A stretch of 64,000 nt of DNA from a virus: IMG/VR virus record IMGVR_UViG_3300045988_106231, positions 70,775-134,774 of that record. The stretch is one strand, 5' to 3'. The position numbers and the translations under genes are program-made. Numbering within the stretch: the stretch's first letter is position 1; every line of letters begins with the position of its first letter. Below, piece after piece: positions 5,719-62,569 of this stretch. Below the pieces are notes generated by a model. It was not told the DNA's origin, did no database searches, and saw only the letters and a program-made list of their open reading frames with translations.

Positions 5719-6585
5719 ATGACTGCTCTGTATTGTTATGACAACGAAATAATAAAGTGGACTTACGGCGATAATCTGTATTGCTTGCATATCCAGCGCG
5801 ATAATGAAGCGGATAATAATCCTCGTTGGTGGGATGACCACGATTCTGTAATGGCCTGTTTCCATTCTCGATACAATCTGGGCGATAAGGTTGATGCAAA
5901 AACACCGGAAGAGTTTTGGAATAACCTGGTTTACAAATATTGTTATGATGATGAAGTTCTTGATGCGCTTTTTAATATGAAGCTGGAAGATACATGTGTC
6001 GTTGTTGATGAAAATTATAGCGACGAAAAAAGATATGCCATCTGCGGTATTGGAACTCTTTTTAATGAAAAGGTTTCGGTAAACCCGATGTATGTTGGTT
6101 TGAAGTATAACGAGATTGTTACATACGTTACTGGTGAGTTTTCGATTCGCGATTGTCAGATTCTTCTTGATAAGTATATTGCATGGCTTCCTCTTTGGCT
6201 GCATGACCATTCTGGCTTGTCCATGGATTGCGATACACAGTTCAGAGGTTCATGGGACGATAGTAATGTTGGCTGGATTGTGACCGCTATTACGGATGGT
6301 TCTGATAGTACCAAAAATGAAGCAGAACGAATCATGCGTGATGAGGTAAAGACTTATAGCGATTATCTTTCCGGTGAGAACTATGGCTATACGCTTTATC
6401 GAGAAGAACACGGAGAATGGAAGGAGATTGACAGAACATTCGGATTTATCGGTTCTGACGTGTTTGAAAACGGTATCACATACAGTGTAAGCTATGGTCT
6501 TGAAAAGGCATTGAGGGAAGATCGATGCCGTATTGGTGATGCAGAAAAGGTTGTCACTGTTACTTATGATTTTGATAAATGTTGA
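5719..6585 (+). CDS. hypothetical protein (288 aa)
   Basis: AAGGAG RBS; long ORF, no motif recognised. Confidence 0.65.
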   Translation: MTALYCYDNEIIKWTYGDNLYCLHIQRDNEADNNPRWWDDHDSVMACFHSRYNLGDKVDAKTPEEFWNNLVYKYCYDDEVLDALFNMKLEDTCVVVDENYSDEKRYAICGIGTLFNEKVSVNPMYVGLKYNEIVTYVTGEFSIRDCQILLDKYIAWLPLWLHDHSGLSMDCDTQFRGSWDDSNVGWIVTAITDGSDSTKNEAERIMRDEVKTYSDYLSGENYGYTLYREEHGEWKEIDRTFGFIGSDVFENGITYSVSYGLEKALREDRCRIGDAEKVVTVTYDFDKC

Positions 6586-6609
6586 GCTCTAAAATGGGGT
6601 TGAATAGAT

Positions 6610-6774
6610 ATGGCATATAAATATACCGAAGAAGAAGTTTGGAATGCGATTCATACACTTTCTGATATGAGAGCTGGATTTAACTGCTTTGACGAAAATG
6701 ATGTACAGAAGTATGAAGCGTGTTCAATGGGGATTGTTGCATTAAGAACGCTTGTGAACGCCGATAAAAGTTGA
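6610..6774 (+). CDS. hypothetical small protein (54 aa, not in ORF track)
   Basis: ATG..TGA ORF fills the gap between flanking genes. Confidence 0.35.
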   Translation: MAYKYTEEEVWNAIHTLSDMRAGFNCFDENDVQKYEACSMGIVALRTLVNADKS

Positions 6775-6793
6775 ATTTTAGAAGGAAAATAAA

Positions 6794-7288
6794 ATGGATG
6801 ACAATATGATGGAACGTCAAATTGCTGATTATATGGTAGAGTATGGCACTAAGAATACAAATTATGGCACATGGGTGTTTGAGGTTGATGAACTGGCGAA
6901 AAAGTTCAATATTACAGAGAAATGGATTCAGGAACATGAAGACGGTATTATGTCTGAGCTGTATCTCAGAGAAGAAGTGGCTGACGTTGAACGTGAATTA
7001 AGCGGCAATGATATGACTATCACACTTTTTGATGTGAATTTCTACACCGACTATTGCCCTAACTATATTGAAGACGAACAGGAAAAGGATGATGGCGTAA
7101 ATCAATATTGGTTTGCTGAAACTCGTTGGTGTATCGATGATATTATCGGTATTGCAAAAGACAATGGAATTGAAATGACTCCGCAGCAAGCAGAACAGTG
7201 GTGGAAAAAGAATGAAAATTGGTTCAGAAATGCTCTTGTTGAATATGGTAATGAAGTGCTAAAAAATGTAAATTTTGATGAGGTATAA
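6794..7288 (+). CDS. hypothetical acidic protein
   Basis: GAAGGAAAA RBS region, 164 aa, acidic. Confidence 0.6.
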   Translation: MDDNMMERQIADYMVEYGTKNTNYGTWVFEVDELAKKFNITEKWIQEHEDGIMSELYLREEVADVERELSGNDMTITLFDVNFYTDYCPNYIEDEQEKDDGVNQYWFAETRWCIDDIIGIAKDNGIEMTPQQAEQWWKKNENWFRNALVEYGNEVLKNVNFDEV

Positions 7289-7291
7289 AAC

Positions 7292-7462
7292 ATGAAAATG
7301 AATATTGATATTGATATTGAACGTGTTGGAAGTGGTTTGTTTAACGTCTATATCAGTGATAATGGAAACTCTGGTGCCGAATACAAAAATGTAGACTGCA
7401 ATCAAATTGGTGAATATGTAGCAGATTTGATTGATTGTTTGGAAGAAAGTTATGAGGTGTAA
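7292..7462 (+). CDS. hypothetical small protein (56 aa, not in ORF track)
   Basis: GAGGT RBS then ATG 7292; fills gap. Confidence 0.4.
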   Translation: MKMNIDIDIERVGSGLFNVYISDNGNSGAEYKNVDCNQIGEYVADLIDCLEESYEV

Positions 7463-7465
7463 GGT

Positions 7466-7801
7466 ATGAATTATGATAATGGACCTTGCTGGTTGTGTAT
7501 TGAGAAATCTTGCAAGAACTGTCCATGTGCTGTTGCTGAAGCATATGAAAATACATATTTAGATGCACAGTGGATGCAGAAGCTAAGTTGGAATAAAGAT
7601 GATTGCGATAAATTTGTTGAGCGTCTTTGGAAAGAGAACACAGATATCGCATGGACCGAAAATGAACGTGGAGAACTAGTTCTTGATCAGAATTGGAGAG
7701 GTTTCCCAGTTGGCAACTTTACACAAGATGATTGGTTCCGTTGGGTGGATGAGTTTCATAGTAAAGGTGTTGGCTGGGTTTACGAGAATGTGAGGGTTTG
7801 A
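7466..7801 (+). CDS. hypothetical Cys-rich protein (CWLC...CKNCPC)
   Basis: GAGGTG RBS; 111 aa. Confidence 0.55.
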   Translation: MNYDNGPCWLCIEKSCKNCPCAVAEAYENTYLDAQWMQKLSWNKDDCDKFVERLWKENTDIAWTENERGELVLDQNWRGFPVGNFTQDDWFRWVDEFHSKGVGWVYENVRV

Positions 7802-8046
7802 TTATGAAATATATGTGGGCGGTTTGTGATGTAAAAGCAGACGGAAAATATTATGCTTATCCAATAAGGATTTCCGTAATGGATAATCTGTTAAGCAAAT
7901 TAGCCATTAAGGGTATTAAGGCTGCAAATCTCTGTGAGAGTAAAAAGAAGGCAAAGAGGTTGCGGATATGTGGAATGAGTGCCATAAGACAAATAAACAA
8001 TATATGTTCACGACAGATGGTCCAACGTTTTGAAAGGAGAAAATGA
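7798..8046 (+). CDS. hypothetical basic protein
   Basis: ATGA overlap with previous stop; weak RBS. Confidence 0.4.
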   Translation: MIMKYMWAVCDVKADGKYYAYPIRISVMDNLLSKLAIKGIKAANLCESKKKAKRLRICGMSAIRQINNICSRQMVQRFERRK

Positions 8047-8047
8047 T

Positions 8048-8284
8048 ATGTGGTGTGTTATTGAATGTGGTTCTGAAGGTGAGATTTTTGAGCCTGAATT
8101 TTTCAAAACCAAAACGGAAGCAATAAAATACATTATGGATGATTCGGAAGAATGTTATGCAATGTATTCTGATTTTCCTGACGTCCAAACTGATTATGAT
8201 GACAATGAATTTGAGGCACAAGTTTGGACAGATAAATTCAGTTTCAAATGGAAAGCATTTGATGTTTCTGGTAAGTTAATGTAA
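8048..8284 (+). CDS. hypothetical acidic protein
   Basis: ATG 8048 is 8 nt after AAAGGAG. Confidence 0.55.
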   Translation: MWCVIECGSEGEIFEPEFFKTKTEAIKYIMDDSEECYAMYSDFPDVQTDYDDNEFEAQVWTDKFSFKWKAFDVSGKLM

Positions 8285-8299
8285 AAGGAGAGTTTTATT

Positions 8300-8485
8300 A
8301 TGAAATATGACACTCAAGCGATGGCCGAGGTCCTTTGTAAAACAGCAGGCGTTGAATATAGCTCTGATTTGGAAAAATTGCTGTACCATTTAAATGTTCA
8401 AGCACAAAATCCTTACAATGCAGATTTTCGGCGTACAGGTTTGGCTATCATTGTAAAAGTGTGTGAGGAGTTGGAAAAACGATAA
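8300..8485 (+). CDS. hypothetical protein
   Basis: AAAGGAGAG RBS, 61 aa. Confidence 0.5.
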   Translation: MKYDTQAMAEVLCKTAGVEYSSDLEKLLYHLNVQAQNPYNADFRRTGLAIIVKVCEELEKR

Positions 8486-8658
8486 TGTATTACCATCTTG
8501 AATATTCTGTCAGGCATTTTATGTACGGCGATACATACAAAGGGCATGAAATCTATCCAACAAAAGAGCTGCGTGATGCAGAACTTAACTGGATGAAAAC
8601 GTGTTATAGTAAGCCGACAGAGCTTGTCTATACAACGTATGAAAACCGAAACGCTTAG
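8485..8658 (+). CDS. hypothetical small protein (57 aa, not in ORF track)
   Basis: ATAATG overlap with previous stop; fills gap. Confidence 0.35.
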   Translation: MYYHLEYSVRHFMYGDTYKGHEIYPTKELRDAELNWMKTCYSKPTELVYTTYENRNA

Positions 8659-8680
8659 TGAAGATAAGATAATGATATGA

Positions 8681-9007
8681 ATGGAAATAGATATGAGTAA
8701 TTTGAAATATAGCTGGAAATACGGGGAAAACGAACATCAAAAATATTACGATGTTTATATTGGAAAAGACTATCTTTGTGTCTGGCAAAACAAATGGGAA
8801 CCTGATATTTGGATGGGGATGTCCCGTGATAAAATGATTCATAACAAAACAAAGAATAATAAATATCGTCGCAAAGAAAAACTTCCTTTGAATACACATT
8901 GGAGCGAACTGCGATGTGACACTATTCTTTGTAGTATTGATCCTGTTTATATGATGAAGAAAGTCGAATATTGTTATCGTCATAATATTGATGAAATTTC
9001 AGAATAA
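8681..9007 (+). CDS. hypothetical protein
   Basis: 108 aa ORF; start 8681 or 8693. Confidence 0.5.
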   Translation: MEIDMSNLKYSWKYGENEHQKYYDVYIGKDYLCVWQNKWEPDIWMGMSRDKMIHNKTKNNKYRRKEKLPLNTHWSELRCDTILCSIDPVYMMKKVEYCYRHNIDEISE

Positions 9008-9018
9008 GGAGAATGAAT

Positions 9019-9336
9019 ATGACGGCACGAGAGATCGCAAGAGATTTTATTTCTAAGATGAATCCATGTAGATGGAATGGACGTGGATACAAACCGGATA
9101 CATTTAATGATAAAGATCAGATTAGATATCATGTAGATGGTCACCCTGAAATTGATGTGGATGTTTATTATGAATATGATGCTGGCGATAATAGCTGGTG
9201 GCATTTTTGTGATGCGCGTGATAATGCTTCTGGCGATAAAATTCTTGGTGTATGTAATCCTAATGTTTGGTCTATTGATGCAATTGAAGAATCTGTTAAA
9301 CATTTATTTAACAAAATAAATATTAAAATTAAATAA
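9019..9336 (+). CDS. hypothetical protein
   Basis: ATG 9019 is 7 nt after AAGGAG. Confidence 0.55.
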   Translation: MTAREIARDFISKMNPCRWNGRGYKPDTFNDKDQIRYHVDGHPEIDVDVYYEYDAGDNSWWHFCDARDNASGDKILGVCNPNVWSIDAIEESVKHLFNKINIKIK

Positions 9337-12568: not shown

Positions 12569-12793
12569 ATGATGGTATATGGAAACATAACGTGTAATCG
12601 CTGTGGCATTACATGGTATGGCCCTAAATGTGGAAAGCTCTATTGTGATGAATGTCGTAAGATAATAAGAAATGAGGCATCCATTCGATGCAAGAATAAA
12701 AAGAAACATAAACCAACATTTGTTGAGATTGTAAGAATGGCAGATGCTGAAGGATTATCTTACGGTAAGTATTGCTTGAAGTATGGAATTTGA
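12569..12793 (+). CDS. zinc-ribbon small protein (CNRCG...CGKLYCDEC)
   Basis: Two CxxC pairs; GAGGTG RBS. Confidence 0.5.
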   Translation: MMVYGNITCNRCGITWYGPKCGKLYCDECRKIIRNEASIRCKNKKKHKPTFVEIVRMADAEGLSYGKYCLKYGI

Positions 12794-12800
12794 GGTGAAT

Positions 12801-13652
12801 ATGATGAGTGCGCTTGAAAACGAAAAGAAAATCGAAAATACTGTTGCTTTTGATTTTTCTGACTACGATTCTTCTAACAAAGAAAAAAGTCAGAAAGTAG
12901 TTAAAAAGAATTATAGCCTGACTCGTATGGAAGCAAATCATGGGTCGGTTCAGCCAATTAAAGACAAAGAGGATATCAAACGTATTTCAGAATATTTTTG
13001 GATTAAACGTCAGTACCGCAACTGGTGTTTGTTTAATGTAGGATGTTGCACAGGATTCAGAGCAAGTGATTTGCTTCGTTTGAAGGTTTCTGATGTAGCA
13101 GCTACAGATATGAATGGAAAGGTCGTAGTGAATTTTAACGCAAAACTTCGTGTTAAGGAAAAGAAAACAAATAAGTATCGCATTCTTAAAGTTCCGGTCC
13201 CGGCACTAAAGTGTATTCAAACTTATATCAATATTGATGGATTGTCTTATGACGATTGGCTCTTCCCGTCTCGGCAAGGCAGTTGGAAGAACTCCATGAG
13301 AACAAACGGTGGAACAAGTGTAAGTAAATCTGATGTGTTCCGTAAGTATGATGCAAATCCAAAAGAAATGGGCGACCCGCTTGATGTGGATTCTTTTGGC
13401 AGAATCATGCGTCAAGTTGGTAAGGAGTTAGATCTTCCTGTCCAGCTTGGTTCTCATAGCTGCCGCAAAACTTTCGGATATCAGTTTATTGCATCTCATC
13501 CAAATGACGTAAAAGCTCTTGCGTGGTTGCAGCATAGTCTGAATCACAGTAGTCAGGCAATTACGCTTCGCTATATTGGTCTGGATGAAGAAGTGGATGA
13601 TGAATACTACTCTGGGATTGATTATGGCGTGGACTGCCATGAAAACTCTTGA
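12801..13652 (+). CDS. tyrosine site-specific recombinase (small, phage-integrase family)
   Basis: Catalytic signature visible: TGFRASDLLRL (Arg I), HSCRKTFGY (HxxR), LQHSLNHSSQAITLRYI (His, Arg, Tyr); start 12783/12801/12804 ambiguous. Confidence 0.75.
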   Translation: MMSALENEKKIENTVAFDFSDYDSSNKEKSQKVVKKNYSLTRMEANHGSVQPIKDKEDIKRISEYFWIKRQYRNWCLFNVGCCTGFRASDLLRLKVSDVAATDMNGKVVVNFNAKLRVKEKKTNKYRILKVPVPALKCIQTYINIDGLSYDDWLFPSRQGSWKNSMRTNGGTSVSKSDVFRKYDANPKEMGDPLDVDSFGRIMRQVGKELDLPVQLGSHSCRKTFGYQFIASHPNDVKALAWLQHSLNHSSQAITLRYIGLDEEVDDEYYSGIDYGVDCHENS

Positions 13653-17245: not shown

Positions 17246-17494
17246 ATGGACAAAGTGAAATATTCTGATTACAATATAGAAGACTTGAAGCAGAGAAGGA
17301 AATCTTACGGAAGCGGCATTGAAATTTGCAGAAGTGGAGATGGAATTGACACTTCAATCGGTAGCAAAGTATGTTTTCCTGGACGAACATTGTCGCCGGA
17401 TGAGGCGATTGCTTTTGCGGAGAATCTGATTAAGGCCGCGAATGAGGCAAAAGAGTTTAAGTACAACGGATATTTCATCAATTGGCTTGAGTAA
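17246..17494 (+). CDS. hypothetical protein
   Basis: TAAGGAGGAGGG RBS. Confidence 0.6.
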   Translation: MDKVKYSDYNIEDLKQRRKSYGSGIEICRSGDGIDTSIGSKVCFPGRTLSPDEAIAFAENLIKAANEAKEFKYNGYFINWLE

Positions 17495-17519
17495 AACTAA
17501 TCTTTTAGGAGGATTTAAT

Positions 17520-18296
17520 ATGCCAAGGAAAAAGACGGTAGAAGCTAAACAATTGGCACCGAAAGAAATAGCTCGTAAGTCACCTACGTTTGCAGAGATT
17601 CCTGAGATGGCAAGTCGTGCTGGTGAGCCTACATACTATTATAATGTAGGAGATGCTGTAGTGATTGGCCGTCTTAGTGGTTGCAAGATTGATGAAGTCT
17701 GCGACGGTGGTTTATATTACGGTGTTTCTTATGATAATGGATACAGGTACGAAACGTGGTTCAATATTCGTAGAGCAGGAGTCGAGAAGGAGTCTCAGCT
17801 GACTAAGAATGATGACATTAAGATTTCCTACTCAAATGTGACCATCGAATCCTTGCTCCACAGGTATTACTTCTTTGGCATCAACTGCAATCCGAGTTAT
17901 CAACGCGGATCTGTGTGGACGGATGATGACCGTGAATTGCTTCTTGAGACAATTTTTATGGGTGGTGAAATCGGTCGATTTGTTCTGAAAAACATTGACA
18001 TGGACGAATGGCATGAAAATCAGAACTACCTTTATGAAATCATTGACGGTAAGCAGAGACTTCTGACACTTGCTGCGTTCTACGAAGATCGGTTCCGTTA
18101 TAAAGGATATCTGTACAGTGAACTCTCTAAGAAAGATAAGAGAACCTTTGATGAGACTGCAATTGCTATCGCGGATTTGCGGAATCTTTCTAAGAAAGAT
18201 ACGTTGCGTGTGTTCTTGCTTCTGAATCGCGGCGGCAAGGTCGTTTCCAATGCTGTGCTTGACCATGCAAAAGAGCTTCTGAACGAAATGGAGTGA
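17520..18296 (+). CDS. DUF262 / DGQHR (ParB-like nuclease superfamily) domain protein
   Basis: IIDGKQRLLTL matches the (I/V)DGQQR(L/I)T signature of the DUF262/GmrSD-N domain; TAGGAGG RBS before ATG 17520. Confidence 0.55.
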   Translation: MPRKKTVEAKQLAPKEIARKSPTFAEIPEMASRAGEPTYYYNVGDAVVIGRLSGCKIDEVCDGGLYYGVSYDNGYRYETWFNIRRAGVEKESQLTKNDDIKISYSNVTIESLLHRYYFFGINCNPSYQRGSVWTDDDRELLLETIFMGGEIGRFVLKNIDMDEWHENQNYLYEIIDGKQRLLTLAAFYEDRFRYKGYLYSELSKKDKRTFDETAIAIADLRNLSKKDTLRVFLLLNRGGKVVSNAVLDHAKELLNEME

Positions 18297-47150: not shown

Positions 47151-47942
47151 ATGACTGTTGAACTGATTGCACATACTCCTGATCCTGAAAAGGTGGTAGC
47201 TGCCGCTGCAAAGCTGTGCTATTCCAATTCGAGTATTCAGGATTTGATGGATGGACTGACCGATGAGAAGGTCGATGAATTTTTGAATCGACTTTCTAGC
47301 CTTGGTCACGCCAGTCCTACTGAACATGTGACTTTTACTTTTGGAATCGAAAGTGTGAGCCGTTCTTTGCTTGCTCAGATAACCCGCCACCGCATTGCGT
47401 CATTTAGTGTGCAGAGTCAGCGCTATGTGCGAATGAATAATGCAGAAATCATCATTCCTGATGTTATTGATGAGGATAGCGAAGCACGAGAAGTGTTTGA
47501 ACAGGCAATTCAGACTGCTGAATATTCCTATAAGCACCTATGTCAGATTCTTGAGGACAAGATTACTGAGGAACTGATGGTTGCTGATTCTCGTTTGACT
47601 GAGAAAAAGGCACGCGCAAAAGCGTCCAAGATTGCAAACGAGAATGCACGTTCTGTTCTTCCAAATGCTTGTTCTACAAAGATGATTGTTACAATGAACG
47701 CTCGTTCGTTGAATAATTTCTTTAACCTGCGTTGTTGTGAGCGAGCGCAGCCGGAAATCAGGGAGCTTGCAACCGAGATGTTAAAGCTGGTTTATCCGAT
47801 TGCTCCTCATCTGTTTAAGTATGCTGGCCCCAACTGCTGTGGTAATGGTTGTACTGAAGGAATGATGTCTTGTGGTAAGTTCCACGAGATTCGTGATAAA
47901 TACGACAAACTGAAACAGGAGGCTTTAAATGGAAACACTTGA
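47151..47942 (+). CDS. thyX: flavin-dependent thymidylate synthase ThyX
   Basis: ThyX signature RHRIASFSVQSQRY (RHR..S....SQRY) present; AAGGAGAG RBS. Confidence 0.85.
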   Translation: MTVELIAHTPDPEKVVAAAAKLCYSNSSIQDLMDGLTDEKVDEFLNRLSSLGHASPTEHVTFTFGIESVSRSLLAQITRHRIASFSVQSQRYVRMNNAEIIIPDVIDEDSEAREVFEQAIQTAEYSYKHLCQILEDKITEELMVADSRLTEKKARAKASKIANENARSVLPNACSTKMIVTMNARSLNNFFNLRCCERAQPEIRELATEMLKLVYPIAPHLFKYAGPNCCGNGCTEGMMSCGKFHEIRDKYDKLKQEALNGNT

Positions 47943-48369
47943 TGACATCAAGAAAAATACAGACCATCCTTCCCACTACGGAGGCGCAGATAATCCGTAT
48001 GAAGCAATTAAGGTGCTTCATGAATGGGGATTGGACAAGGATGCTTATCTTTGGAACACTGGTAAGTATCTGAGCCGTGCAGGGCACAAGGATGGCAATT
48101 CTCTGCTTCAAGATTTAACGAAGGCACGTTGGTATTTGGACTATAAAATCCGACTTTTAGAGGAACAGCAGAAGATTGTTGAAAGCGTCGTAGATACGCT
48201 AAAGAAGATTCCTAACGAGGTAACTGACAAGCTGACTACGATGCCGGATTACATTCCTCGTCATGCAAAGCCTGACTATACGGATGATTTGGTTTTCTGT
48301 CCAGAGATTCATGCTCCAAACATTGAGACTGCCGTGGTTCCTGATTGTGCCGATGAAGTCAAATTCTAA
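47929..48369 (+). CDS. DUF3310-like hypothetical protein
   Basis: Pattern HPSHYGG...EAI...W...GKYLSRAGHKDG...DLTKARWYL resembles the DUF3310 consensus recalled from phage genomes. Confidence 0.4.
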   Translation: METLDDIKKNTDHPSHYGGADNPYEAIKVLHEWGLDKDAYLWNTGKYLSRAGHKDGNSLLQDLTKARWYLDYKIRLLEEQQKIVESVVDTLKKIPNEVTDKLTTMPDYIPRHAKPDYTDDLVFCPEIHAPNIETAVVPDCADEVKF

Positions 48370-48382
48370 GAGGTTTACATAT

Positions 48383-48472
48383 ATGAGATACAACTGGGAA
48401 GAACCATTTGCGGCATTCGCCCTGTTTGTTACAATGTTGTTTTTTGGCTTTGCCAAATTTGTTTTAAAATAA
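48383..48472 (+). CDS. possible 29-aa hydrophobic peptide
   Basis: AAGAGG RBS; very small. Confidence 0.25.
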   Translation: MRYNWEEPFAAFALFVTMLFFGFAKFVLK

Positions 48473-48488: not shown

Positions 48489-50012
48489 ATGAATATGATG
48501 TTTATTGCAATTCCTGTCGTTATTGTCCTTCTGGTCGCCTTTGCATTTACTTGCTACAAGAAGGCTCCTCCTACTCAGGCAATTGTCGTAACAGGTTTTG
48601 GACTGTCTAAGCCAAAAGTTATCTGTGGTCGTGGCGTGTTCGTTCTTCCGGTTATTCAGCGAGCTGACCGTCTAAATATGCGACTGCTCAAGATTGATGT
48701 CAAGACTCCTGAAACTGGTGTCAAGACTAAAGAGGGCGTTTCTCTGTGGCTGGACTCTGTTGTTACTGTTCAGGTTTACTCTGAAAACTCTACTGTAACT
48801 GATGATGAGATTAAGAGCGCCGGTTGCGGGGATGCAAAGACTTACATTAGTGCTCGTCAGCAGGCTGCTATTTCCAACTTCCTTGGCATGAGTGAAGATG
48901 GCATTAACGAGAAGATTAACGATGTCCTTCAGGGCAATCTGCGAGAGATTGTTTCTGAGATGACTGTCAACGATATCCTGACCAATCGTAAACAGATGGC
49001 AATTTCCGTTGTTGAGAATGCTCGTCCTGATCTAGCAAAGATGGGTCTGGAAGTTGTTACTTTCAATGTTCAGGATATCAAGGATGCTATTGATGCTCAG
49101 GGTCACAACCACGGCGTCATCGAGGCCATCGGCGTTCAGCAGGAAGAGCTTGTGAAGAAGCAGGCAGAGATTGCTAAGGCCGAAGCCGCTCGTGATATTG
49201 CTCGTGCTAAGGCAGATACTGCTCGTGAATCAAATGAAAAGGAAATTGAATCTAAGACTGCTATTGCACAGCGTAACAATGAGTATCTTCTGACTCAGGC
49301 TGCTCTGAAGGCAGAGGCTGATAAGGCAAATGCTGATGCAGAAGCTGCTGGTGAGATCCAAATGAATCTGCGTGATAAGGAAATCAAGGAAGCTGAGGCT
49401 GACGCAGCTATTGCGAAGCAGAAGAAGATGGTTGAATTGGCCGCCCAGGAAGCAGAAGTTCGTCAGCAGAAGCTGGATGCAGAGATTCGTAAGCAGGCAG
49501 ATGCTGACCTGTATAAGCGTCAGAAAGAAGCTGAAGCAAAAAAGTACGAGGCAGAGCGTTTTGCAGAATCTGCGAAGTTTGCTAAGGAGCAGGAAGCTGA
49601 AGGTATTCGTATGGTTGGTATGGCCGAGGCAGATGCTATCAAGCAGAAAGGTCTTGCTGAGGCAGAAGCTATGCTGAAGAAGGCTGAGGCTTACAAACAG
49701 TATAACGGTGCTGCAATGGGCGAGATGATCATTAAAATTCTGCCTAGTATCGCAGAACAGGTTGCAAAGCCTCTGGCATCTATTGATAAGGTTTCCATTA
49801 TCGGCGGTAACGCAAATGGCGTTTCTGAGATTTCTGGGAATGTCCCGGCGGTCATGGCACAGACTTTTGAGGCTGTTAAGGAAGCCACTGGCATTGATAT
49901 GCGAGAGATTGTACGTGCCAACAGTTACGATGCCAAGGTTACTAAGAATGTAAATCTTGTAAGTGATTCTACTATCACTTCCGAGAATAACAACGCACAG
50001 AACGTTGAGTAA
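48489..50012 (+). CDS. SPFH/band-7 family protein, flotillin-like (N-terminal TM, long Ala/Glu-rich coiled coil)
   Basis: N-terminal TM helix then an SPFH-like core (QAIVVTGFG...RGVFVLPVIQRADRLNMRLLKIDV) and a ~250-aa AEAEA-rich coiled coil. Confidence 0.65.
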   Translation: MNMMFIAIPVVIVLLVAFAFTCYKKAPPTQAIVVTGFGLSKPKVICGRGVFVLPVIQRADRLNMRLLKIDVKTPETGVKTKEGVSLWLDSVVTVQVYSENSTVTDDEIKSAGCGDAKTYISARQQAAISNFLGMSEDGINEKINDVLQGNLREIVSEMTVNDILTNRKQMAISVVENARPDLAKMGLEVVTFNVQDIKDAIDAQGHNHGVIEAIGVQQEELVKKQAEIAKAEAARDIARAKADTARESNEKEIESKTAIAQRNNEYLLTQAALKAEADKANADAEAAGEIQMNLRDKEIKEAEADAAIAKQKKMVELAAQEAEVRQQKLDAEIRKQADADLYKRQKEAEAKKYEAERFAESAKFAKEQEAEGIRMVGMAEADAIKQKGLAEAEAMLKKAEAYKQYNGAAMGEMIIKILPSIAEQVAKPLASIDKVSIIGGNANGVSEISGNVPAVMAQTFEAVKEATGIDMREIVRANSYDAKVTKNVNLVSDSTITSENNNAQNVE

Positions 50013-50024
50013 AGGAGGAATCAC

Positions 50025-52226
50025 ATGGATTATGTGATTAAACGAAACGGAACGAAAGTTCCTTTTGACAAAAGTAAGATTGTAAATGCGATTGAGAAGG
50101 CGATGACCTGTACGCCGGGTGGTATCGACGCTCGTGTGTCGAATGCGATTGCTGACTATATCGCAGACATGCCGGACATTCTTTCTGTTGAGCAGATTCA
50201 GGATATCGTAGTGAACAGTCTAGCAAATAGCCCGTTCATCGATGTTGCAGATGCATATAGTCAGTGGCGACAGTATCGTCAGGAAATTCGAGATAAAGAG
50301 AAAACCAACGCAAGTATTCTTGAAATTCTTGATGCCCAGAACGACGCAATCAATCAGGAAAATAGTAATAAGAACGCAACCATCAATAGCACGCAACGTG
50401 ATTACATGGCCGGAGAGGTATCTAAGGAACTAACTGACAGACTTCTACTTCCAAAGGATATCCGAGATGCACACAAAAATGGTTTAATTCATGTGCATGA
50501 TAAAGATTATTTTGTGATGCACTGCCATAATTGCGATCTGGTCAATCTGGAAGATATGCTCCAGAACGGCACTGTCATCTCCGGCACCTATATCGAAAAG
50601 CCCCACAGCTTTTCCACGGCCTGCAATATTGCGACCCAGATCATCGCACAGGTGGCTTCGATGCAATTTGGAGGTCAGAGTATTACACTTTCACATCTGG
50701 CTCCATTCGTGGATGTTTCCCGCAAGAAGATTACAAGTGAAGTACACCAAGAATTTTACGAGATGGTTCAGAATAATGAAATCGATAAGATGCCGGAGTC
50801 TGAAACTATCAATCGAATTGTAGAAGAGCGTTTACATAAAGAAATTGCTCGTGGCGTGCAGACCATCCAGTATCAGGTCGTCACTTTGATGACCACCAAT
50901 GGTCAGGCCCCCTTTATCACCGTGTTCATGTATCTCGATGAAGTTCCAGAAGGTCAGACTCGTGATGATTTAGCTCTAATTGTTGAAGATGTGTTAAAAC
51001 AGCGCATTCAGGGTGTAAAGAATGAAGTTGGTGTATGGGTTACTCCGGCCTTCCCAAAGCTCATTTATGCTCTTGATGAGGATAACATTCATCCTGATTC
51101 TAAGTATTATTACCTGACTGAGCTGGCGGCTAAGTGTACTGCCAAGCGAATGGTTCCTGATTATATTTCCGCAAAGGTTATGAAGGAGCTTAAAGGCGGT
51201 GTGTGGCCTAGCATGGGCTGTAGATCCTTCCTTACTCCTGACCGCACCACTGAGAACGTAGCTAATGCCAAGAATTGGGTTAAGGGGCATAAGTATTATG
51301 GCCGCTTTAACCAGGGTGTGGTAACTATCAATCTGGTAGATGTGGCTTGCAGTTCAAAAAGGGACAAAGATAAATTCTGGAAAATCTTCGATGAACGACT
51401 CGAATTGTGTCATCGAGCTCTACAGATTCGTCACAAGCGTCTACTCGGCACTCCTTCTGATATGGCCCCTATCCTGTGGCAGTACGGTGCATTAGCTCGT
51501 CTAAAGAAGGGCGAGAAGATCGACAAGTTGCTCTTCGGCGGCTATTCCACCATCAGCCTGGGCTATGCCGGTCTGTATGAGTGTGTAAAGTATATGACCG
51601 GCAAGAGCCACACCGATCCTGATGCTAAACCTTTCGCTCTCGAAATTATGCAGCACATGAATGATAAGTGTAACGAGTGGAAGGCCGCTGAAAACATCGA
51701 TTACTCCCTGTATGGTACTCCTTTGGAGTCCACTACATATGAATTTGCACGTTGCTTGCAGAAGCGGTTCGGTATGATTCCAGATGTTACTGACCATGAC
51801 TACGTAACAAATTCTTATCATGTCGTTGTCCGTGAACATATCGATGCTTTCACTAAGCTAAAGTTTGAGAGCGAGTTCCAGAAGCTTTCTCCCGGAGGAG
51901 CGATTAGCTATATCGAGGTGCCAAATCTGCAGCAGAACATTCCTGCGGTGCTTAGTGTTATGCAGTTTATTTACGACAACATCATGTATGCGGAGCTGAA
52001 CACCAAGTCCGACTACTGCCAGTGCTGTGGTTACGACGGCGAAATTAAAATTGTAGAAGATGAGAAAAACCACAAGCTTGTATGGGAGTGCCCGAATTGT
52101 GGTAATCGTGACCAGAACAAAATGAATGTCGTAAGACGTACCTGCGGTTACCTGGGAACCAATTTTTGGAATCAGGGGCGCACTCAGGAAATTCGAGATC
52201 GAGTAGTTCATCTGAGCGACAACTAA
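50025..52226 (+). CDS. nrdD: anaerobic ribonucleoside-triphosphate reductase NrdD (class III)
   Basis: C-terminal Zn-ribbon CQCCG...CPNCGN followed by glycyl-radical motif RRTCGYLG; 733 aa. Confidence 0.85.
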   Translation: MDYVIKRNGTKVPFDKSKIVNAIEKAMTCTPGGIDARVSNAIADYIADMPDILSVEQIQDIVVNSLANSPFIDVADAYSQWRQYRQEIRDKEKTNASILEILDAQNDAINQENSNKNATINSTQRDYMAGEVSKELTDRLLLPKDIRDAHKNGLIHVHDKDYFVMHCHNCDLVNLEDMLQNGTVISGTYIEKPHSFSTACNIATQIIAQVASMQFGGQSITLSHLAPFVDVSRKKITSEVHQEFYEMVQNNEIDKMPESETINRIVEERLHKEIARGVQTIQYQVVTLMTTNGQAPFITVFMYLDEVPEGQTRDDLALIVEDVLKQRIQGVKNEVGVWVTPAFPKLIYALDEDNIHPDSKYYYLTELAAKCTAKRMVPDYISAKVMKELKGGVWPSMGCRSFLTPDRTTENVANAKNWVKGHKYYGRFNQGVVTINLVDVACSSKRDKDKFWKIFDERLELCHRALQIRHKRLLGTPSDMAPILWQYGALARLKKGEKIDKLLFGGYSTISLGYAGLYECVKYMTGKSHTDPDAKPFALEIMQHMNDKCNEWKAAENIDYSLYGTPLESTTYEFARCLQKRFGMIPDVTDHDYVTNSYHVVVREHIDAFTKLKFESEFQKLSPGGAISYIEVPNLQQNIPAVLSVMQFIYDNIMYAELNTKSDYCQCCGYDGEIKIVEDEKNHKLVWECPNCGNRDQNKMNVVRRTCGYLGTNFWNQGRTQEIRDRVVHLSDN

Positions 52227-52336
52227 ATAAAGTATAAGACGGGATAGTAAAATGCGAGAAATCGTGATTTTCTTTTTGATTGTGTGGGCGATTTCCTACT
52301 ACATCTTAAAAGACAATTTTAAATAAGGAGAACTAT

Positions 52337-53188
52337 ATGAAAAAGTTTGGAGCCATTATTGGTGCGTTTATTATGGCAGTATGTGTATTGCTGTGTACTG
52401 AGCGGGTACATACCGGTTATGTAGGTGTTGTATATTCTGCTAAGGGTGTTGAACAGCAGACTATTTCTCAGGGCTGGCACTTTATGAGCCCATTGAAGCA
52501 TGTGTCTGAGTTCCCGATCACTCAGCAGCGTGTGGTATTCTCTAATGCAGCATCTGATTACGGTGCAAAGGAGCACGCAGACTGGCATATTGACGCTCCT
52601 GCAAATGGCGGTACGATTGCAATCAATCTGACTGTAAACTATAATTTCCTGCCTGAGCATGTCGTTGAGCTGTATACCAAGTTTGGTGGCATGGATGGCG
52701 AGAGCCTTATGGAGAGCAAGATTCAGAATGACATTATTGCTTATGTCAAGGAAGTGACTCCTCAGTTTAGTGTCATGCAGATTTACTCTGATGATCGAGC
52801 AGGTGTGAATACTGCAATTACCAATTACCTGAATGAGAAGCTGACCGCCGAATACGGTATCAATGTCTCTTCCGCTCTGATTGTTGATGCACAGCCGGAT
52901 GATACCCTGATGCAGAAGATTCGTGCCAAGGAGCAGGCCAAGCAGGACGCAGAGATTGCTGAGTTGAATAAGCAGACCGCTCTGGCTCAGGCCGAAACTG
53001 ATAAGGTCAAGGCTCAGACGGAAGCTGACGTTAAGATGATTGAGGCACAGGCTGAGGCTGATGCAAATAAGGTACTTTCCGAGTCCATCACTCCTGAACT
53101 AATTCAGATGAAGGAAGCAGAGGCACGTTTGAAGCATGGCTGGGTAACTGTACAGGGTGCTGACACCGTTGTAACTAAGGGTGAGTAA
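52337..53188 (+). CDS. SPFH/band-7 family membrane protein (HflK/C-like)
   Basis: N-terminal TM helix; SPFH-type core (GYVGVVYSAKGVEQQTISQGWHFMSPL...); C-terminal AQAE coiled coil. Confidence 0.6.
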   Translation: MKKFGAIIGAFIMAVCVLLCTERVHTGYVGVVYSAKGVEQQTISQGWHFMSPLKHVSEFPITQQRVVFSNAASDYGAKEHADWHIDAPANGGTIAINLTVNYNFLPEHVVELYTKFGGMDGESLMESKIQNDIIAYVKEVTPQFSVMQIYSDDRAGVNTAITNYLNEKLTAEYGINVSSALIVDAQPDDTLMQKIRAKEQAKQDAEIAELNKQTALAQAETDKVKAQTEADVKMIEAQAEADANKVLSESITPELIQMKEAEARLKHGWVTVQGADTVVTKGE

Positions 53189-53238
53189 GTAGCATCTTAT
53201 TGATGGAATAAAAGCAGGGTGGGTTGGTGGGATTAAAT

Positions 53239-53715
53239 ATGGACAGACTTAGTAAGAAGCTGCAAGAAGAAAAGAAGAAAGAAACCAAGGTCACAAAATA
53301 CTATCATTACAAGGACATGAACATTAAAACACCTTATTGGTTTCTGTATCCGATTCTTATCATTATCTACTGGCTTGAGAGACTCTTTGTTGTCGCAGAG
53401 AGGTTCCGTCGCAAGAAGTTGAATAAGTGGAGCGATAAGCGAACTGACCGTATCCTAAGATATGCGTTTCCAAAAGTGTGCAGCGTGTGTACTTTGGACA
53501 ATAGTTTTTATCTTACTTGCCGTGATAATGCATATCTTCTTCATTGGTCGGAATGGAGTAGACCATGGGACTGGTATTATTGCGATTTACACAACCTTGA
53601 AATTCTAAATTATCTTGCGTGGAATTTTGAAATGCCCGGATATGTGAAAACAACAAAGGAAGAAGATGATTATCCAGATAACTGGATTACGGTTATATTC
53701 AAAAAGGAGACTTGA
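53239..53715 (+). CDS. hypothetical membrane protein with Cys/Trp-rich C-terminal region
   Basis: TM helix YWFLYPILIIIYWL; ATG 53239. Confidence 0.5.
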   Translation: MDRLSKKLQEEKKKETKVTKYYHYKDMNIKTPYWFLYPILIIIYWLERLFVVAERFRRKKLNKWSDKRTDRILRYAFPKVCSVCTLDNSFYLTCRDNAYLLHWSEWSRPWDWYYCDLHNLEILNYLAWNFEMPGYVKTTKEEDDYPDNWITVIFKKET

Positions 53716-53987
53716 TTATGATTATTACAGGTATGGCTCACTTCGAAAGTGTTTGTAAGAATGCTCTTGTCAAGTGGTACTATGAGCATACGTCCGATGA
53801 AATTACGCTGGAAAACGTTTTTGTGGTCTGGAGCTGCAAAACTCTCCAGAACTATAAGGCTCTGCTGTCCACCACCATTAGCGGTGACGGCATCTATGCA
53901 GAGTATACCTACAACGGCGACAAGCAGGAGCTTTACGAGGATGTATATGAAAAGCTGACTAATCAGTGCATCAAAGAGGAGCTATAA
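53712..53987 (+). CDS. hypothetical protein
   Basis: ATGA overlap, 91 aa. Confidence 0.5.
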   Translation: MIMIITGMAHFESVCKNALVKWYYEHTSDEITLENVFVVWSCKTLQNYKALLSTTISGDGIYAEYTYNGDKQELYEDVYEKLTNQCIKEEL

Positions 53988-55215: not shown

Positions 55216-55524
55216 ATGTTTAAGACTTTCAAAAATACTGCCGTATGCGTACTTCTAGCAGCTATTATACTGACTGGATGCAGTACAAGCGTGAAAGACT
55301 CAGTAGGAAATGTAGCTGTAGAGAATGGATGGTTCTATCGTATCAGTGATACCCCTATGGTATACGACAAGGATACACACGTCATGTATTATTTGTTCAA
55401 AAAAAGTGCAGGTAATCAAGGCTACGGATATATGTCTCCTTATTATAATGAGCACGGTCAGATGTGCTACTACGTTGATGGCCAGATTATTCCTGTAGAG
55501 GAGGTGGTAATTGATGTTAACTGA
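55216..55524 (+). CDS. predicted lipoprotein
   Basis: Signal peptide plus lipobox LTGCS. Confidence 0.6.
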   Translation: MFKTFKNTAVCVLLAAIILTGCSTSVKDSVGNVAVENGWFYRISDTPMVYDKDTHVMYYLFKKSAGNQGYGYMSPYYNEHGQMCYYVDGQIIPVEEVVIDVN

Positions 55525-55721: not shown

Positions 55722-56159
55722 ATGGATACTAGCTTTAATTTAAAGCACGTTCCCGGAAGCTTTGCATGGATTATTGAGCGAGAAAATGCTGATAAAAATT
55801 GTAATAAATGTGATGCTGACGGAAATGTGAACATAACATTCATTGATGGCACTCAGAAGAAATATCGTTGTCCTATCTGCCTTGGATATAAAAAGATCGT
55901 GAAAGACGTATATCGAATCAAAAAATGTAAAGTCAAGAGAGTGAATATCGGTGCAAGACTTGAAAAAGATGACGATTTGATAATAGCGGAAGAGTCTATT
56001 CAATTAGAAGGATTTGATATTAGCGACAACATCGATCCTGATTTTGAGTATTACATTCGTAATATCTATGATACAGAAAGTGATGCGAAAGCTGCCGCAA
56101 ATAAAATCAATAAAGCACGAGGGAACATTGATGAATTATATGAAGATTGTACCATGTGA
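55722..56159 (+). CDS. hypothetical protein with CxxC...CPIC zinc-binding pattern
   Basis: 145 aa. Confidence 0.5.
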   Translation: MDTSFNLKHVPGSFAWIIERENADKNCNKCDADGNVNITFIDGTQKKYRCPICLGYKKIVKDVYRIKKCKVKRVNIGARLEKDDDLIIAEESIQLEGFDISDNIDPDFEYYIRNIYDTESDAKAAANKINKARGNIDELYEDCTM

Positions 56160-56658
56160 TATAGCAAATGGTCCGGGCGTAAGAGTCACGTTATTCTGCG
56201 CGGGATGTAACCATCACTGTACCGGCTGTCAGAATCCTACCACATGGGACCCGAATGGTGGTCAGCTATTTACCGAAGAAACGCTTGATAAAATTGTAGA
56301 TTTACTTCGACCTGATTATATTCAGGGGCTTACGCTTACTGGTGGAGACCCACTGCTGCCGGAAAATAGAGAGGTTGTTGAGAAGATCGCCCATCGTGTA
56401 TGGACTGAATTTTTGAGCAAAAAAGACGTCTGGCTCTGGACTGGATATAAGTGGGAAGAGTTATGGAACCAAGATGGACTTGTGGCTGACATTCTTGCGG
56501 ATATAAATGTCCTTGTAGATGGTCCTTTTATTGAAGCAGAAAAAGATATTTCACTTCCATACATGGGAAGCAAGAACCAACGAGTAATTGATATTAAATG
56601 GAGTCTTGGGTATAAAGAACCAACCCTTTGGTGGGCTCCAGAAGAGAAAGGAAAATAA
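56131..56658 (+). CDS. nrdG: anaerobic ribonucleotide reductase activating protein NrdG (radical SAM)
   Basis: CAGCNHHCTGC = Cx3Cx2C radical-SAM cluster near N-terminus; ~175 aa. Confidence 0.75.
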   Translation: MNYMKIVPCDIANGPGVRVTLFCAGCNHHCTGCQNPTTWDPNGGQLFTEETLDKIVDLLRPDYIQGLTLTGGDPLLPENREVVEKIAHRVWTEFLSKKDVWLWTGYKWEELWNQDGLVADILADINVLVDGPFIEAEKDISLPYMGSKNQRVIDIKWSLGYKEPTLWWAPEEKGK

Positions 56659-61741: not shown

Positions 61742-62569
61742 ATGATTATTGACTGTAAATCCATCGCGCAAGATATCAAAAATAAAATCAAGAATATTAT
61801 CGCAGAAGCCGACTACGCTCCTGTTTTACTTATTTATCAAATAGGGGACAACCCTGCATCTAATGCTTATATTCGCGGCAAGCTGCGAGATTGTGAAGAG
61901 GTTAAAATTAAAGCAAAATATATCAAGTTGCCAGAGAAAACGACTGAAGATGAATTAAATAAAATGATATTGCAGAATCGTATTTATGAAGAAGCAGATG
62001 GCGTCATTGTTCAGTTGCCACTACCCAAACATATCAATCCTAAGAATATCATTATTCCAGACGAACTTGACGTTGATGGTTTTAATTTTACATCACCATT
62101 TCAGCCTTGCACTCCGCTTGGCGTTATGAAGATTTTCGACTCCATCGGTTACGATCTGGATGGCAAGAATGTACTCGTAAGCGGTCAATCTGATATTGTT
62201 GGTCGTCCGCTGGTTGATATGCTGATTAAGCGGCACTGTAATGTGATTTCTGTAAATAGCACGGGTTCCGCTATGAAGGACACTGCTCTCGAATTTAGAA
62301 TGGTTAATGTCATCATCTCTGCTGTTGGTAAGCGTAATTTTATCACACCAAGAGGACTAGATCGAGTTGATGTCTGCATTGATGTTGGTATCAACTATGA
62401 CGAGAATGGCAAGCAGCACGGCGACTGCTCCGACGCTGTTTATGACATCGAAGATATCAAGGTGACCCCTCGTATCGGCGGAGTTGGCCTCATGACCCGT
62501 GCCATGCTACTTTATAATGTATGTGTGGCGAAATATGGCGAGCACAAGCTGGAGGAGGTGATTGAATGA
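61742..62569 (+). CDS. folD: bifunctional methylenetetrahydrofolate dehydrogenase/cyclohydrolase FolD
   Basis: FolD-like blocks: LLIYQIGDNPASNAYIRGK, DGVIVQLPLP, GKNVLVSGQSDIVGRPL, PRIGGVGLMTRAMLL; AAAGGAGG RBS. Confidence 0.8.
   Translation: MIIDCKSIAQDIKNKIKNIIAEADYAPVLLIYQIGDNPASNAYIRGKLRDCEEVKIKAKYIKLPEKTTEDELNKMILQNRIYEEADGVIVQLPLPKHINPKNIIIPDELDVDGFNFTSPFQPCTPLGVMKIFDSIGYDLDGKNVLVSGQSDIVGRPLVDMLIKRHCNVISVNSTGSAMKDTALEFRMVNVIISAVGKRNFITPRGLDRVDVCIDVGINYDENGKQHGDCSDAVYDIEDIKVTPRIGGVGLMTRAMLLYNVCVAKYGEHKLEEVIE

Follow-up and report, generated by a model that had tools for sequence, protein, structure and literature searches.

Two genes for membrane proteins of the SPFH family lie on either side of nrdD, the gene for an anaerobic ribonucleoside-triphosphate reductase, in the viral record IMGVR_UViG_3300045988_106231 of IMG/VR. 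The stretch analysed, called the window below, comprises 64,000 nucleotides of this record (positions 70,775 to 134,774) and forms the arm for early replication and nucleotide metabolism in a temperate SPβ-like phage of about 125–150 kb. The locus, at positions 48,489 to 53,188 of the window, raises the question of what a phage does with two such scaffolds and whether they work together with the reductase that they bracket. An earlier note, made from the sequence alone, had implied a functional unit with nrdD. Comparison with related phages leads to a different answer: what looks like an operon with two SPFH genes arose by coincidence, through mosaic assortment at two insertion hot spots. The best overall explanation is probably that two independent, selected accessory cassettes encode predicted cage-type scaffolds that manipulate membrane proteostasis of the host. 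SPFH genes of phages have been known from genome papers since at least 2006, and this locus turns a vague annotation into specific questions.

The open reading frames (ORFs) were all found where the earlier note had placed them, on the plus strand. It had overlooked two tiny ORFs with a single transmembrane (TM) helix directly upstream of the SPFH genes, at 48383-48472 and 52252-52326. The genes at the centre of the locus, with lengths in amino acids (aa), are the following:

47929..48369, plus strand: DUF3310 protein (Pfam DUF3310, E = 1e-9); its 3' end is the left junction of slot A.
48383..48472, plus strand: sTM-A, a 29-aa single-TM mini-ORF known by translation (MRYNWEEPFAAFALFVTMLFFGFAKFVLK), directly upstream of the flotillin gene and preceded by a GAGG ribosome-binding site.
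48489..50012, plus strand: flotillin, 507 aa (Pfam Band_7 and Flot); variable cargo of slot A.
50025..52226, plus strand: nrdD, anaerobic ribonucleoside-triphosphate reductase (Pfam NRDD, E = 5.5e-192; ATP-cone and Gly_radical).
52252..52326, plus strand: sTM-B, a 24-aa single-TM mini-ORF known by translation (MREIVIFFLIVWAISYYILKDNFK); first gene of cassette B.
52337..53188, plus strand: prohibitin-like SPFH protein, 283 aa (Band_7; phrog_200, the MbpS family); second gene of cassette B.

Relatives of the phage were fetched from IMG/VR via their NrdD, and 80 of approximately 206 were scored by tblastn. The nrdD gene is complete in the window and was found in every relative fetched; it is the core gene between two variable positions, slot A (from the DUF3310 gene to nrdD) and slot B (after nrdD). 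Slot A contains the genes for LemA and a 258-aa protein (p258) in 36 of the 80 relatives, the flotillin gene in 13 and neither in 31. Slot B carries the 283-aa SPFH gene in 43 of the 78 relatives in which it could be scored and lacks it in 35; two were unscorable. The contents of the slots combine as follows:

LemA and p258 in slot A: 283-aa SPFH gene present in 25, absent from 9, unscorable in 2.
Flotillin in slot A: 283-aa SPFH gene present in 4, absent from 9, unscorable in 0.
Slot A empty: 283-aa SPFH gene present in 14, absent from 17, unscorable in 0.

Both SPFH genes are found together in four of the 78 scorable relatives, the flotillin gene alone in nine, the 283-aa gene alone in 39 and neither in 26. 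The association between them is negative, if anything (Fisher odds ratio 0.30, p 0.07). Individual genomes illustrate the same point. An identical 283-aa protein is encoded by phages that have, in place of flotillin, LemA (185 aa) and the overlapping gene of the 258-aa two-TM protein, and in a phage whose flotillin is 96% identical, nrdD is not followed by the 283-aa gene. Aligned with L007, a phage without it, cassette B appears as an insertion or deletion spanning approximately 52238-53217. At the left junction of slot A (alignment A1), the last approximately 60 nucleotides of the DUF3310 gene and the sequence TAAGAGGTTTACATA-ATGAGATACAACTGG, including a GAGG site and the codons ATG-AGA-TAC-AAC-TGG (MRYNW), are conserved in phages of the flotillin, LemA and empty types.

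These comparisons identify nrdD as a core gene with a hot spot for accessory cargo on each side. Slots A and B assort independently, and the window, with both SPFH cargoes, represents a minority combination produced by this free assortment. The proposed unit of the two scaffolds with nrdD does not hold against separate insertion–deletion slots that assort independently in 80 relatives, and the tempting idea of a functional tie between the scaffolds and NrdD is thereby removed. The cassettes look co-transcribed with their neighbours. Only 12 nucleotides separate the stop codon of the flotillin gene from the start of nrdD, and this gap contains the AGGAGG site of nrdD; the flotillin gene has a ribosome-binding site of its own. 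Neither promoter-like sites (20 against 15.5±4.4 in shuffled sequence) nor terminator-like sites (7 against 5.2±2.3) are enriched.

The competition of flotillin and LemA for one slot hints at related jobs. The mini-ORF sTM-A belongs to the slot in a different manner: its start, MRYNW, is shared with LemA in LemA-type phages. A mini-ORF with this start occurs in 12 of the 13 flotillin-type and 13 of 17 empty-type loci, and the same start forms the N-terminus of LemA in all 36 LemA-type loci. Slot A of the empty type mostly holds just a TM mini-ORF of about 30 aa. As for the LemA alternative, which is absent from the window, its two genes (L002, 6403-6960 for LemA and 6908-7684 for the 258-aa protein) overlap by 53 nucleotides. 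The 258-aa protein has a TM helix at each end and a beta-rich middle and matches no Pfam family. Between relatives that differ by up to 20% in NrdD, the pair remains 91-100% conserved. A literature search for a link between LemA and HtpX yielded nothing usable.

The identity of the larger SPFH protein can be stated with some precision. It consists of an N-terminal hydrophobic anchor, an SPFH domain, a long Ala/Glu-rich flotillin coiled coil and a C-terminal tail, and it matches Pfam Band_7 (PF01145; E = 1.8e-19, 70.9 bits, cut-off 23.6) and Flot (PF15975; E = 3.5e-8, 34 bits, cut-off 27). It aligns almost end to end with human flotillin-1 and flotillin-2, known from cryo-electron microscopy (9l3g and 9bq2; E = 7.5e-49 and 2.1e-40); on chain 9l3g_A of flotillin-1, its residues 27-489 match residues 6-434. 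Judged by these profiles, the 507-aa protein is a genuine flotillin, as the earlier note had suspected. It is not an orthologue of FloT, because its score on the NCBIfam FloT equivalog (NF058507; 259 bits) lies far below the cut-off of 700.

The closest cellular flotillins are those of gut Clostridia, namely Gemmiger formicilis (79% aa identity), Subdoligranulum (78%) and Dysosmobacter (78%). In Gemmiger, the surroundings of the gene are those of an ordinary chromosomal locus, with no NfeD gene among them. The phage flotillins form a clade with 85-98% identity. The G+C content at third codon positions (GC3) of the window's flotillin gene is 0.43, within the range of the neighbouring phage genes (0.35-0.48), compared with 0.88 for the Gemmiger gene. 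Recent capture from the host, suggested by the wall of bacterial matches at 75-79%, was considered and rejected in view of the phage-like GC3 and the large synonymous divergence within the phage clade. The flotillin gene thus appears to be established phage cargo and not a fresh pick-up, which means that a genuine flotillin can be stable phage cargo.

Two variants of this flotillin were encountered. One, of 456 aa (L024, 8001-9371), occupies the same slot; it is 51 aa shorter and 85% identical over a full-length alignment, its precomputed Pfam annotation lists Band_7 without Flot, and its ratio of nonsynonymous to synonymous substitutions (dN/dS) of 0.038 indicates purifying selection. The other, of 557 aa (L026, 6001-7674; L027, 2902-4575), is 77% identical to that of the window and represents a cluster of 3,342 member sequences. 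Its context is different and looks mobile, with genes for an Mrr_N-domain protein, an HNH/RRXRR protein and a Y-family polymerase as neighbours. The clade to which it belongs seems to move between elements in gut Firmicutes.

The 283-aa protein of slot B is an SPFH protein of a different kind. It combines an N-terminal anchor of two lysines and a TM helix, an invariant cysteine (Cys20), an SPFH domain, a coiled coil and a conserved C-terminal EAEARLKHGWV motif. With 85.2 bits, its Pfam Band_7 match (E = 7.5e-24) also lies well above the cut-off of 23.6; profile searches thus leave both proteins inside the SPFH family, and the alternative that the earlier note had set up, a placement outside it, did not come about. 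Over residues 1-280 of 283, the protein matches phrog_200, a phage family described as 'lipoprotein' or MbpS (E = 7.7e-54). The two SPFH proteins of the window are not paralogues, their pairwise similarity being confined to the Ala/Glu-rich coiled coil, and the window contains no third SPFH gene.

A search of the PDB with the single 283-aa sequence gave no match. A profile of ten phage homologues (alignment A5) gave nearly full-length matches to prohibitin (E = 3.1e-19), erlin (1.3e-16), HflC/HflK (about 1e-10), QmcA (3e-9) and stomatin (1e-7). NCBIfam offered neither HflK nor HflC, nor any other family, for this protein at E <= 0.01. By these scores, the protein is nearest to prohibitin and erlin, and 'HflK/C-like', the name first given to it, is not the best label; its likeness to HflC lies in the predicted N-in/C-out topology alone. 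Foldseek, run with a low-confidence AlphaFold2 model of the protein, returned SPFH cage complexes as all 19 of its 19 best PDB matches, a weak support. Cys20 is invariant among close homologues, and a cysteine occupies the equivalent position in phages K, LWP01 and S-CoN_Ph16. The residue before it is Leu or Met, compared with [LVI][ASTVI][GAS]C in the canonical lipobox.

The gene of the 283-aa protein does not travel alone. Its small upstream neighbour, sTM-B, is present in all 43 relatives that have the SPFH gene and in none of the 37 without it. Its substitutions are all conservative, with dN at about 0.15 and saturated synonymous sites. Of 11 phages chosen from across the family, 10 have a small TM gene that touches or overlaps the SPFH gene in the same orientation; as the sample is small and partly related, this is a lead, not a result. 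The baseline in the window is a small TM neighbour for 4 of 38 larger genes. The encoded mini-TM proteins measure 24 aa in the window, 59 aa in Clostridium phage Amboise, 102 aa in phage K (MbpV), 51 aa in Listeria phage LWP01 (unannotated), 49 aa in Enterococcus phage EF24C (ORF206), 44 aa in Bacillus phage BigBertha (gp141), 44 aa in Halorubrum virus HRTV-14 (gp78), 116 aa in Caulobacter phage Magneto (gp179), 66 aa in Aeromonas phage LAh_8 and 91 aa in S-CoN_Ph16. Streptococcus pyogenes 315.1 is the sole phage without such a gene. The unannotated ORF of LWP01 (L119, 2289-2444) has an N-terminal TM helix, ends exactly at the SPFH start codon and is probably a missed gene.

Both SPFH genes bear the mark of selection, as pairwise Nei-Gojobori estimates indicate:

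Flotillin gene: dN/dS 0.036-0.050 at a synonymous divergence (dS) of 0.2-0.7.
283-aa SPFH gene: dN/dS 0.002-0.021 at dS 0.7-1.0.
nrdD: dN/dS 0.030-0.043 at dS 1.9-3.3.

The 283-aa SPFH protein is thus more constrained than the phage's own ribonucleotide reductase, with a mini-TM gene nearly always alongside. Its identity of 96-100% across hundreds of contigs reflects constraint and not recent spread, because dN/dS is low at substantial dS. Strong purifying selection and a phage-like composition together mark each of the two SPFH genes as functional in the phage.

The claim that SPFH scaffolds are uncommon phage cargo holds for one of the two genes only. By tblastn against 50,697 deposited phage records, flotillin has 10 weak matches with at most 37% identity, several of them short fragments; one is a crAss-like phage in which the gene is annotated as 'flotillin family protein'. 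The 283-aa family, in contrast, is present in 504 of the 50,697 records, with at least 80% of the query covered in 498. Its carriers include Staphylococcus Kayvirus (MbpS), phages of Enterococcus, Bacillus, Streptococcus, Caulobacter and Aeromonas, and haloarchaeal viruses. SPFH ORFs of T4-like phages were tabulated as early as 2006 (PMC1524935), and according to a paper of 2026 the reason why phages have SPFH proteins 'remains unclear' (PMC13239085). As for function, the one comment found is speculative: MbpS might assist the export of Tgl through Sec (PMC7150955). By sequence, then, the 283-aa gene joins a known but uncharacterised phage family, and a true flotillin is rare phage cargo.

How the two proteins might act depends on the side of the membrane on which they lie. 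The N-terminus of the flotillin is uncharged, and a Lys-Lys pair follows its hydrophobic segment; this arrangement predicts a position on the cytoplasmic side, as for cellular flotillins. In the 283-aa protein, the Lys-Lys pair precedes the hydrophobic segment (MKKF...), as in HflC, and by the positive-inside rule its SPFH domain and coiled coil should lie outside the cytoplasm, as in prohibitin, erlin and HflK/C. If these topologies are right, the two proteins occupy opposite faces of the membrane, which is another reason not to see one device in them. By analogy with their family, each most likely forms a ring- or cage-shaped oligomer that encloses a patch of membrane.

The cages of HflK/C, prohibitin and erlin surround or gate AAA proteases and their clients. 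In Bacillus subtilis, excess flotillin stabilises and stimulates FtsH (PMC3892786), and the FloA-NfeD pair holds unfolded membrane proteins (PMC11222466). A tentative proposal for the phage, possible but short of an even chance, is that during lytic growth its cages alter the reach of host quality-control proteases such as FtsH to membrane proteins, or hold clients themselves. Candidate clients would be the co-encoded mini-TM protein or membrane proteins of the phage, and the outcome would be a stabilised membrane programme of the infected cell. The flotillin would act on the inner face and the prohibitin-like protein, with its mini-TM partner, on the outer face; LemA with p258 and flotillin would be alternative solutions for the cytoplasmic side. 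The position beside nrdD would reflect shared early or middle expression and the location of the hot spots, with no partnership with the reductase.

Several points weigh against this reading of two independent membrane cassettes. The AlphaFold2 models are poor, with a predicted local distance difference test (pLDDT) score of 54.0 for the 283-aa protein from a restricted alignment, so that the case for a cage and for the topology comes from analogy with the family and from the positive-inside rule. The invariant Cys20 might point to anchoring as a lipoprotein, though the Leu in front of it misfits the usual lipobox. The mini-ORF sTM-A is a resident of slot A and weak evidence for a partner of the flotillin. 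Because of shared phylogeny among the 80 relatives and among the 11 sampled phages, the counts overstate the statistical weight. Lastly, the placement of this SPFH family among genes of DNA metabolism recurs in unrelated virulent phages: the homologue of EF24C (L120, 1-1635) lies directly downstream of a ribonucleotide reductase gene, and that of BigBertha (L121, 527-2123) directly upstream of the DNA polymerase gene. The favoured account explains this recurrence through shared timing alone.

Among the other explanations, superinfection exclusion or protection of the lysogen survives best, unlikely as it is. The exposed 283-aa protein and its mini-TM neighbour would block DNA entry or the receptor of a competitor, and flotillin or LemA would alter the membrane of the lysogen. 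The patchy accessory distribution, with insertions and deletions of whole genes, is typical of morons, the phage is temperate and widely integrated, and the homologue in S. pyogenes prophage 315.1 directly follows a repressor-like gene. Ltp and Llp are known exclusion lipoproteins, which the predicted outward and possibly lipid-anchored topology of the 283-aa protein resembles. Yet no convincing promoter or terminator belongs to either SPFH gene alone, both being embedded in a co-directional early array, and none of the 5,027 defence-system models of PADLOC-DB v2 matches the flotillin, the 283-aa protein or the 158-aa protein encoded further downstream. Searches of the literature library combining SPFH with superinfection exclusion or with anti-phage activity gave no functional link. 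In the strictly virulent Herelleviridae, where the family is common, its role cannot be to protect lysogens, though it could still act in exclusion during lytic growth there.

A role in the timing of lysis is quite improbable. In this reading, the SPFH cage would set the time of membrane permeabilisation by sequestering or organising the mini-TM protein, taken to be holin- or antiholin-like. In Kayvirus, the lysis region contains mbpV and mbpS between lysK and tgl (PMC7150955), the product of mbpV having a TM helix and a charged tail and being described as holin-like, and mini-proteins with an N-terminal TM helix and a charged tail are those that abut the SPFH gene in the 10 of 11 sampled phages. 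The 24-aa peptide of the window, on the other hand, is almost tailless, no holin family matches, and in the window phage, Amboise, BigBertha and EF24C the cassette lies among genes of replication and nucleotide metabolism.

That location is what commends the model of the earlier note, in which the two scaffolds build a membrane microdomain anchoring a factory for replication and deoxynucleoside triphosphates that includes NrdD. The SPFH genes of the window are near nrdD, thyX, nrdG and dut, homologues are found beside the reductase gene (EF24C), beside the DNA polymerase gene (BigBertha) and inside the replication module of Amboise, and membrane-anchored replication has a precedent in some Bacillus phages, with p1 and p16.7 of φ29. 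The model is very doubtful all the same. The slots assort freely, the 26 of 78 scorable relatives with neither SPFH gene include 17 that also have no LemA, and slot A holds LemA and p258 more often than flotillin. NrdD works in the cytoplasm, whereas the predicted orientation of the 283-aa protein is outward, and the real partner of nrdD, nrdG, is encoded 3.9 kb away. The weakest reading, that the SPFH genes are passengers recently picked up from a host and without a role in the phage, can point to the gut Clostridia as source of the closest cellular flotillins (78-79%) and to the minority of relatives that have flotillin, but is strongly disfavoured by the low dN/dS of both genes over substantial synonymous divergence, by a flotillin GC3 that fits the phage and not the nearest bacterial gene, and by the diversification of the phage flotillin clade itself (85-98%).

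Returning to the reading of two independent membrane cassettes, a more far-reaching extension can be offered as a conjecture with somewhat less than an even chance of being right. The 283-aa SPFH protein and its abutting mini-TM protein may form a conserved two-component viral membrane module, present from phages of Firmicutes and Caulobacter to haloarchaeal viruses; LemA with p258 and flotillin would then be interchangeable solutions on the cytoplasmic side. If this is true, the natural variants of the slots are a ready-made allelic series for asking why phages carry SPFH genes.

The remaining genes near the two cassettes are the following:

47151..47942, plus strand: thyX, flavin-dependent thymidylate synthase (Pfam Thy1, E = 9.3e-69); conserved flank gene.
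53239..53715, plus strand: single-TM, Trp-rich orphan protein of 158 aa; no family match.
53712..53987, plus strand: DUF6275 protein (Pfam DUF6275, E = 5e-30).
56125..56658, plus strand: nrdG, the radical SAM activase of NrdD (Pfam Fer4_12, E = 7.3e-47; Radical_SAM).

The gene nrdG, approximately 3.9 kb downstream, is the real functional partner of nrdD. For the 158-aa protein, the earlier note had suggested an NfeD-like partner of the SPFH proteins. No match to it was found in Pfam, PHROGs, NCBIfam or PADLOC. Its homologues form 12 clusters, all at least 72% identical, and its gene is present in 14 of the 80 relatives, together with the 283-aa SPFH gene in 4 of these 14 and with flotillin in 1 of 14. 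The NfeD family (PF01957) had no Pfam match in this protein or in either mini-ORF, the window as a whole not having been scanned for NfeD, and none was found next to bacterial flotillins at the loci inspected for profile building. The 158-aa protein is therefore best described, on sequence grounds, as a lineage-restricted orphan and not as an NfeD-type partner. One TM helix is predicted, in agreement with its first description as 'TM/Cys-rich', but the second half of that label was overstated, since the protein has four cysteines, two of them invariant among homologues. Its AlphaFold2 model (pLDDT 53.8, restricted alignment), with mixed alpha/beta content, is too unreliable for a fold comparison. 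The DUF6275 gene accompanies the 158-aa gene in some relatives, and the order is identical in L007. A 102-aa ORF at 55216-55524, 2 kb downstream of the SPFH cassette, has a canonical lipoprotein signal (…AAIILTG-C-STS) and no family match.

The assignment of the window to a temperate SPβ-like phage rests on its gene content and on its relatives. On the plus strand throughout, the window encodes an anti-repressor-like protein, a DnaB-like helicase, a RecJ-like exonuclease, a polymerase of the DNA polymerase III alpha type, a RecD-like helicase and an ATP-dependent ligase, seven tRNAs, the nucleotide-metabolism proteins ThyX, NrdG, dUTPase and FolD, the DUF3310 protein and, at its end, an integrase. 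The relatives, on IMG/VR contigs of 120-150 kb, have the SPβ-type structural domains YonD_N, YomU_Tube and YomW in addition to Xis and integrase. The prophage is very widespread in human gut metagenomes: metagenomic contigs of 240-667 kb have the 283-aa gene, 97% identical, in their middle part, and this copy is indexed in 1,110 blocks of the collection. The names of sequence clusters, searched for a host, gave only 'Bacteriophage sp.' and, for the 77%-identical flotillin, 'Clostridium sp. TM06-18'. A nucleotide search against deposited phages yielded four short fragment matches, none covering the locus.

Further observations concern the same arm of the genome. The thyX gene exists as two alleles among the relatives, with 95-97% and 34-35% protein identity; the type found in the window is in the minority, and the alleles assort independently of the flotillin/LemA slot. 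FolD, a methylene-tetrahydrofolate dehydrogenase/cyclohydrolase (61742-62569; Pfam E = 3.5e-34 and 5.1e-24), is encoded just ahead of Xis and the integrase and is an auxiliary gene of the folate cycle that would feed ThyX. In approximately 12 relatives (L097-L107), the nrdD match extends over about 3.07 kb (6001-9072) instead of the usual 2.2 kb, and its C-terminal block restarts near 7384. This pattern implies an insertion of about 0.9 kb, be it an intron, an intein or a homing-endonuclease gene; the match in L065 (6001-8469) has approximately 270 bp extra. One metagenome-assembled prophage copy from NCBI (L116, 5410-6585) has an IS110-family transposase gene a few genes downstream of the SPFH cassette. 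Elsewhere in the window, a second gene of the tyrosine-recombinase family (12783-13652; Phage_integrase, E = 2.8e-15) lies far from the terminal integrase, and a protein with a GmrSD_N restriction-endonuclease domain is encoded at 17442-18296 (E = 2.7e-15).

Comparison with known systems sets the two cassettes apart. The cargo of slot A resembles human flotillin-1 and flotillin-2 and bacterial FloT/YuaG in its full-length architecture. Unlike these cellular flotillins, it is encoded by a phage, within an array of early replication genes, and in a slot that alternatively holds LemA. In contrast to FloT operons, no NfeD gene is adjacent to it, as is also the case in the nearest bacterial relatives inspected. 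LemA, the alternative cargo (PF04011; Pfam LemA, E = 8.1e-34), is a small, N-terminally anchored membrane protein with a fold unrelated to SPFH; its first five codons and TM region are shared with the mini-ORF that precedes the flotillin gene.

The cargo of slot B belongs with the phrog_200 family, which includes Kayvirus MbpS, EF24C ORF207, BigBertha gp142 ('HflC-like') and the haloviral 'SPFH superfamily protein'. The profile match runs end to end, and the N-terminal anchor, SPFH domain, coiled coil, (E)AEAR.KHGWV motif and abutting mini-TM gene are shared with that family. The 283-aa protein nonetheless has only 22-43% identity with the deposited members, Amboise being closest (43%). Compared with other phrog_200 loci, its mini-TM partner is extremely short (24 aa), and the cassette is an optional insertion or deletion in an SPβ-like temperate phage.

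Among cellular proteins, prohibitin, erlin and HflK/C offer the best PDB profiles, and the predicted type-II, non-cytoplasmic topology and the long coiled coil fit for a ring or cage are further points of likeness. Their cages consist of two paralogous subunits, whereas the window has one gene in the cassette; the flotillin is unrelated to it and assorts independently. A second parallel is provided by the SPFH-NfeD operons (YuaF-FloT, YqeZ-FloA and YbbJ-QmcA), in which the gene for an SPFH protein is likewise closely joined by a co-oriented gene for a small membrane protein. The phage partners, with 24-116 aa, are too short for the OB-fold domain of NfeD. Should the conjectured pair of SPFH and mini-TM protein be real, it would be the viral counterpart of the cellular SPFH-NfeD pair.

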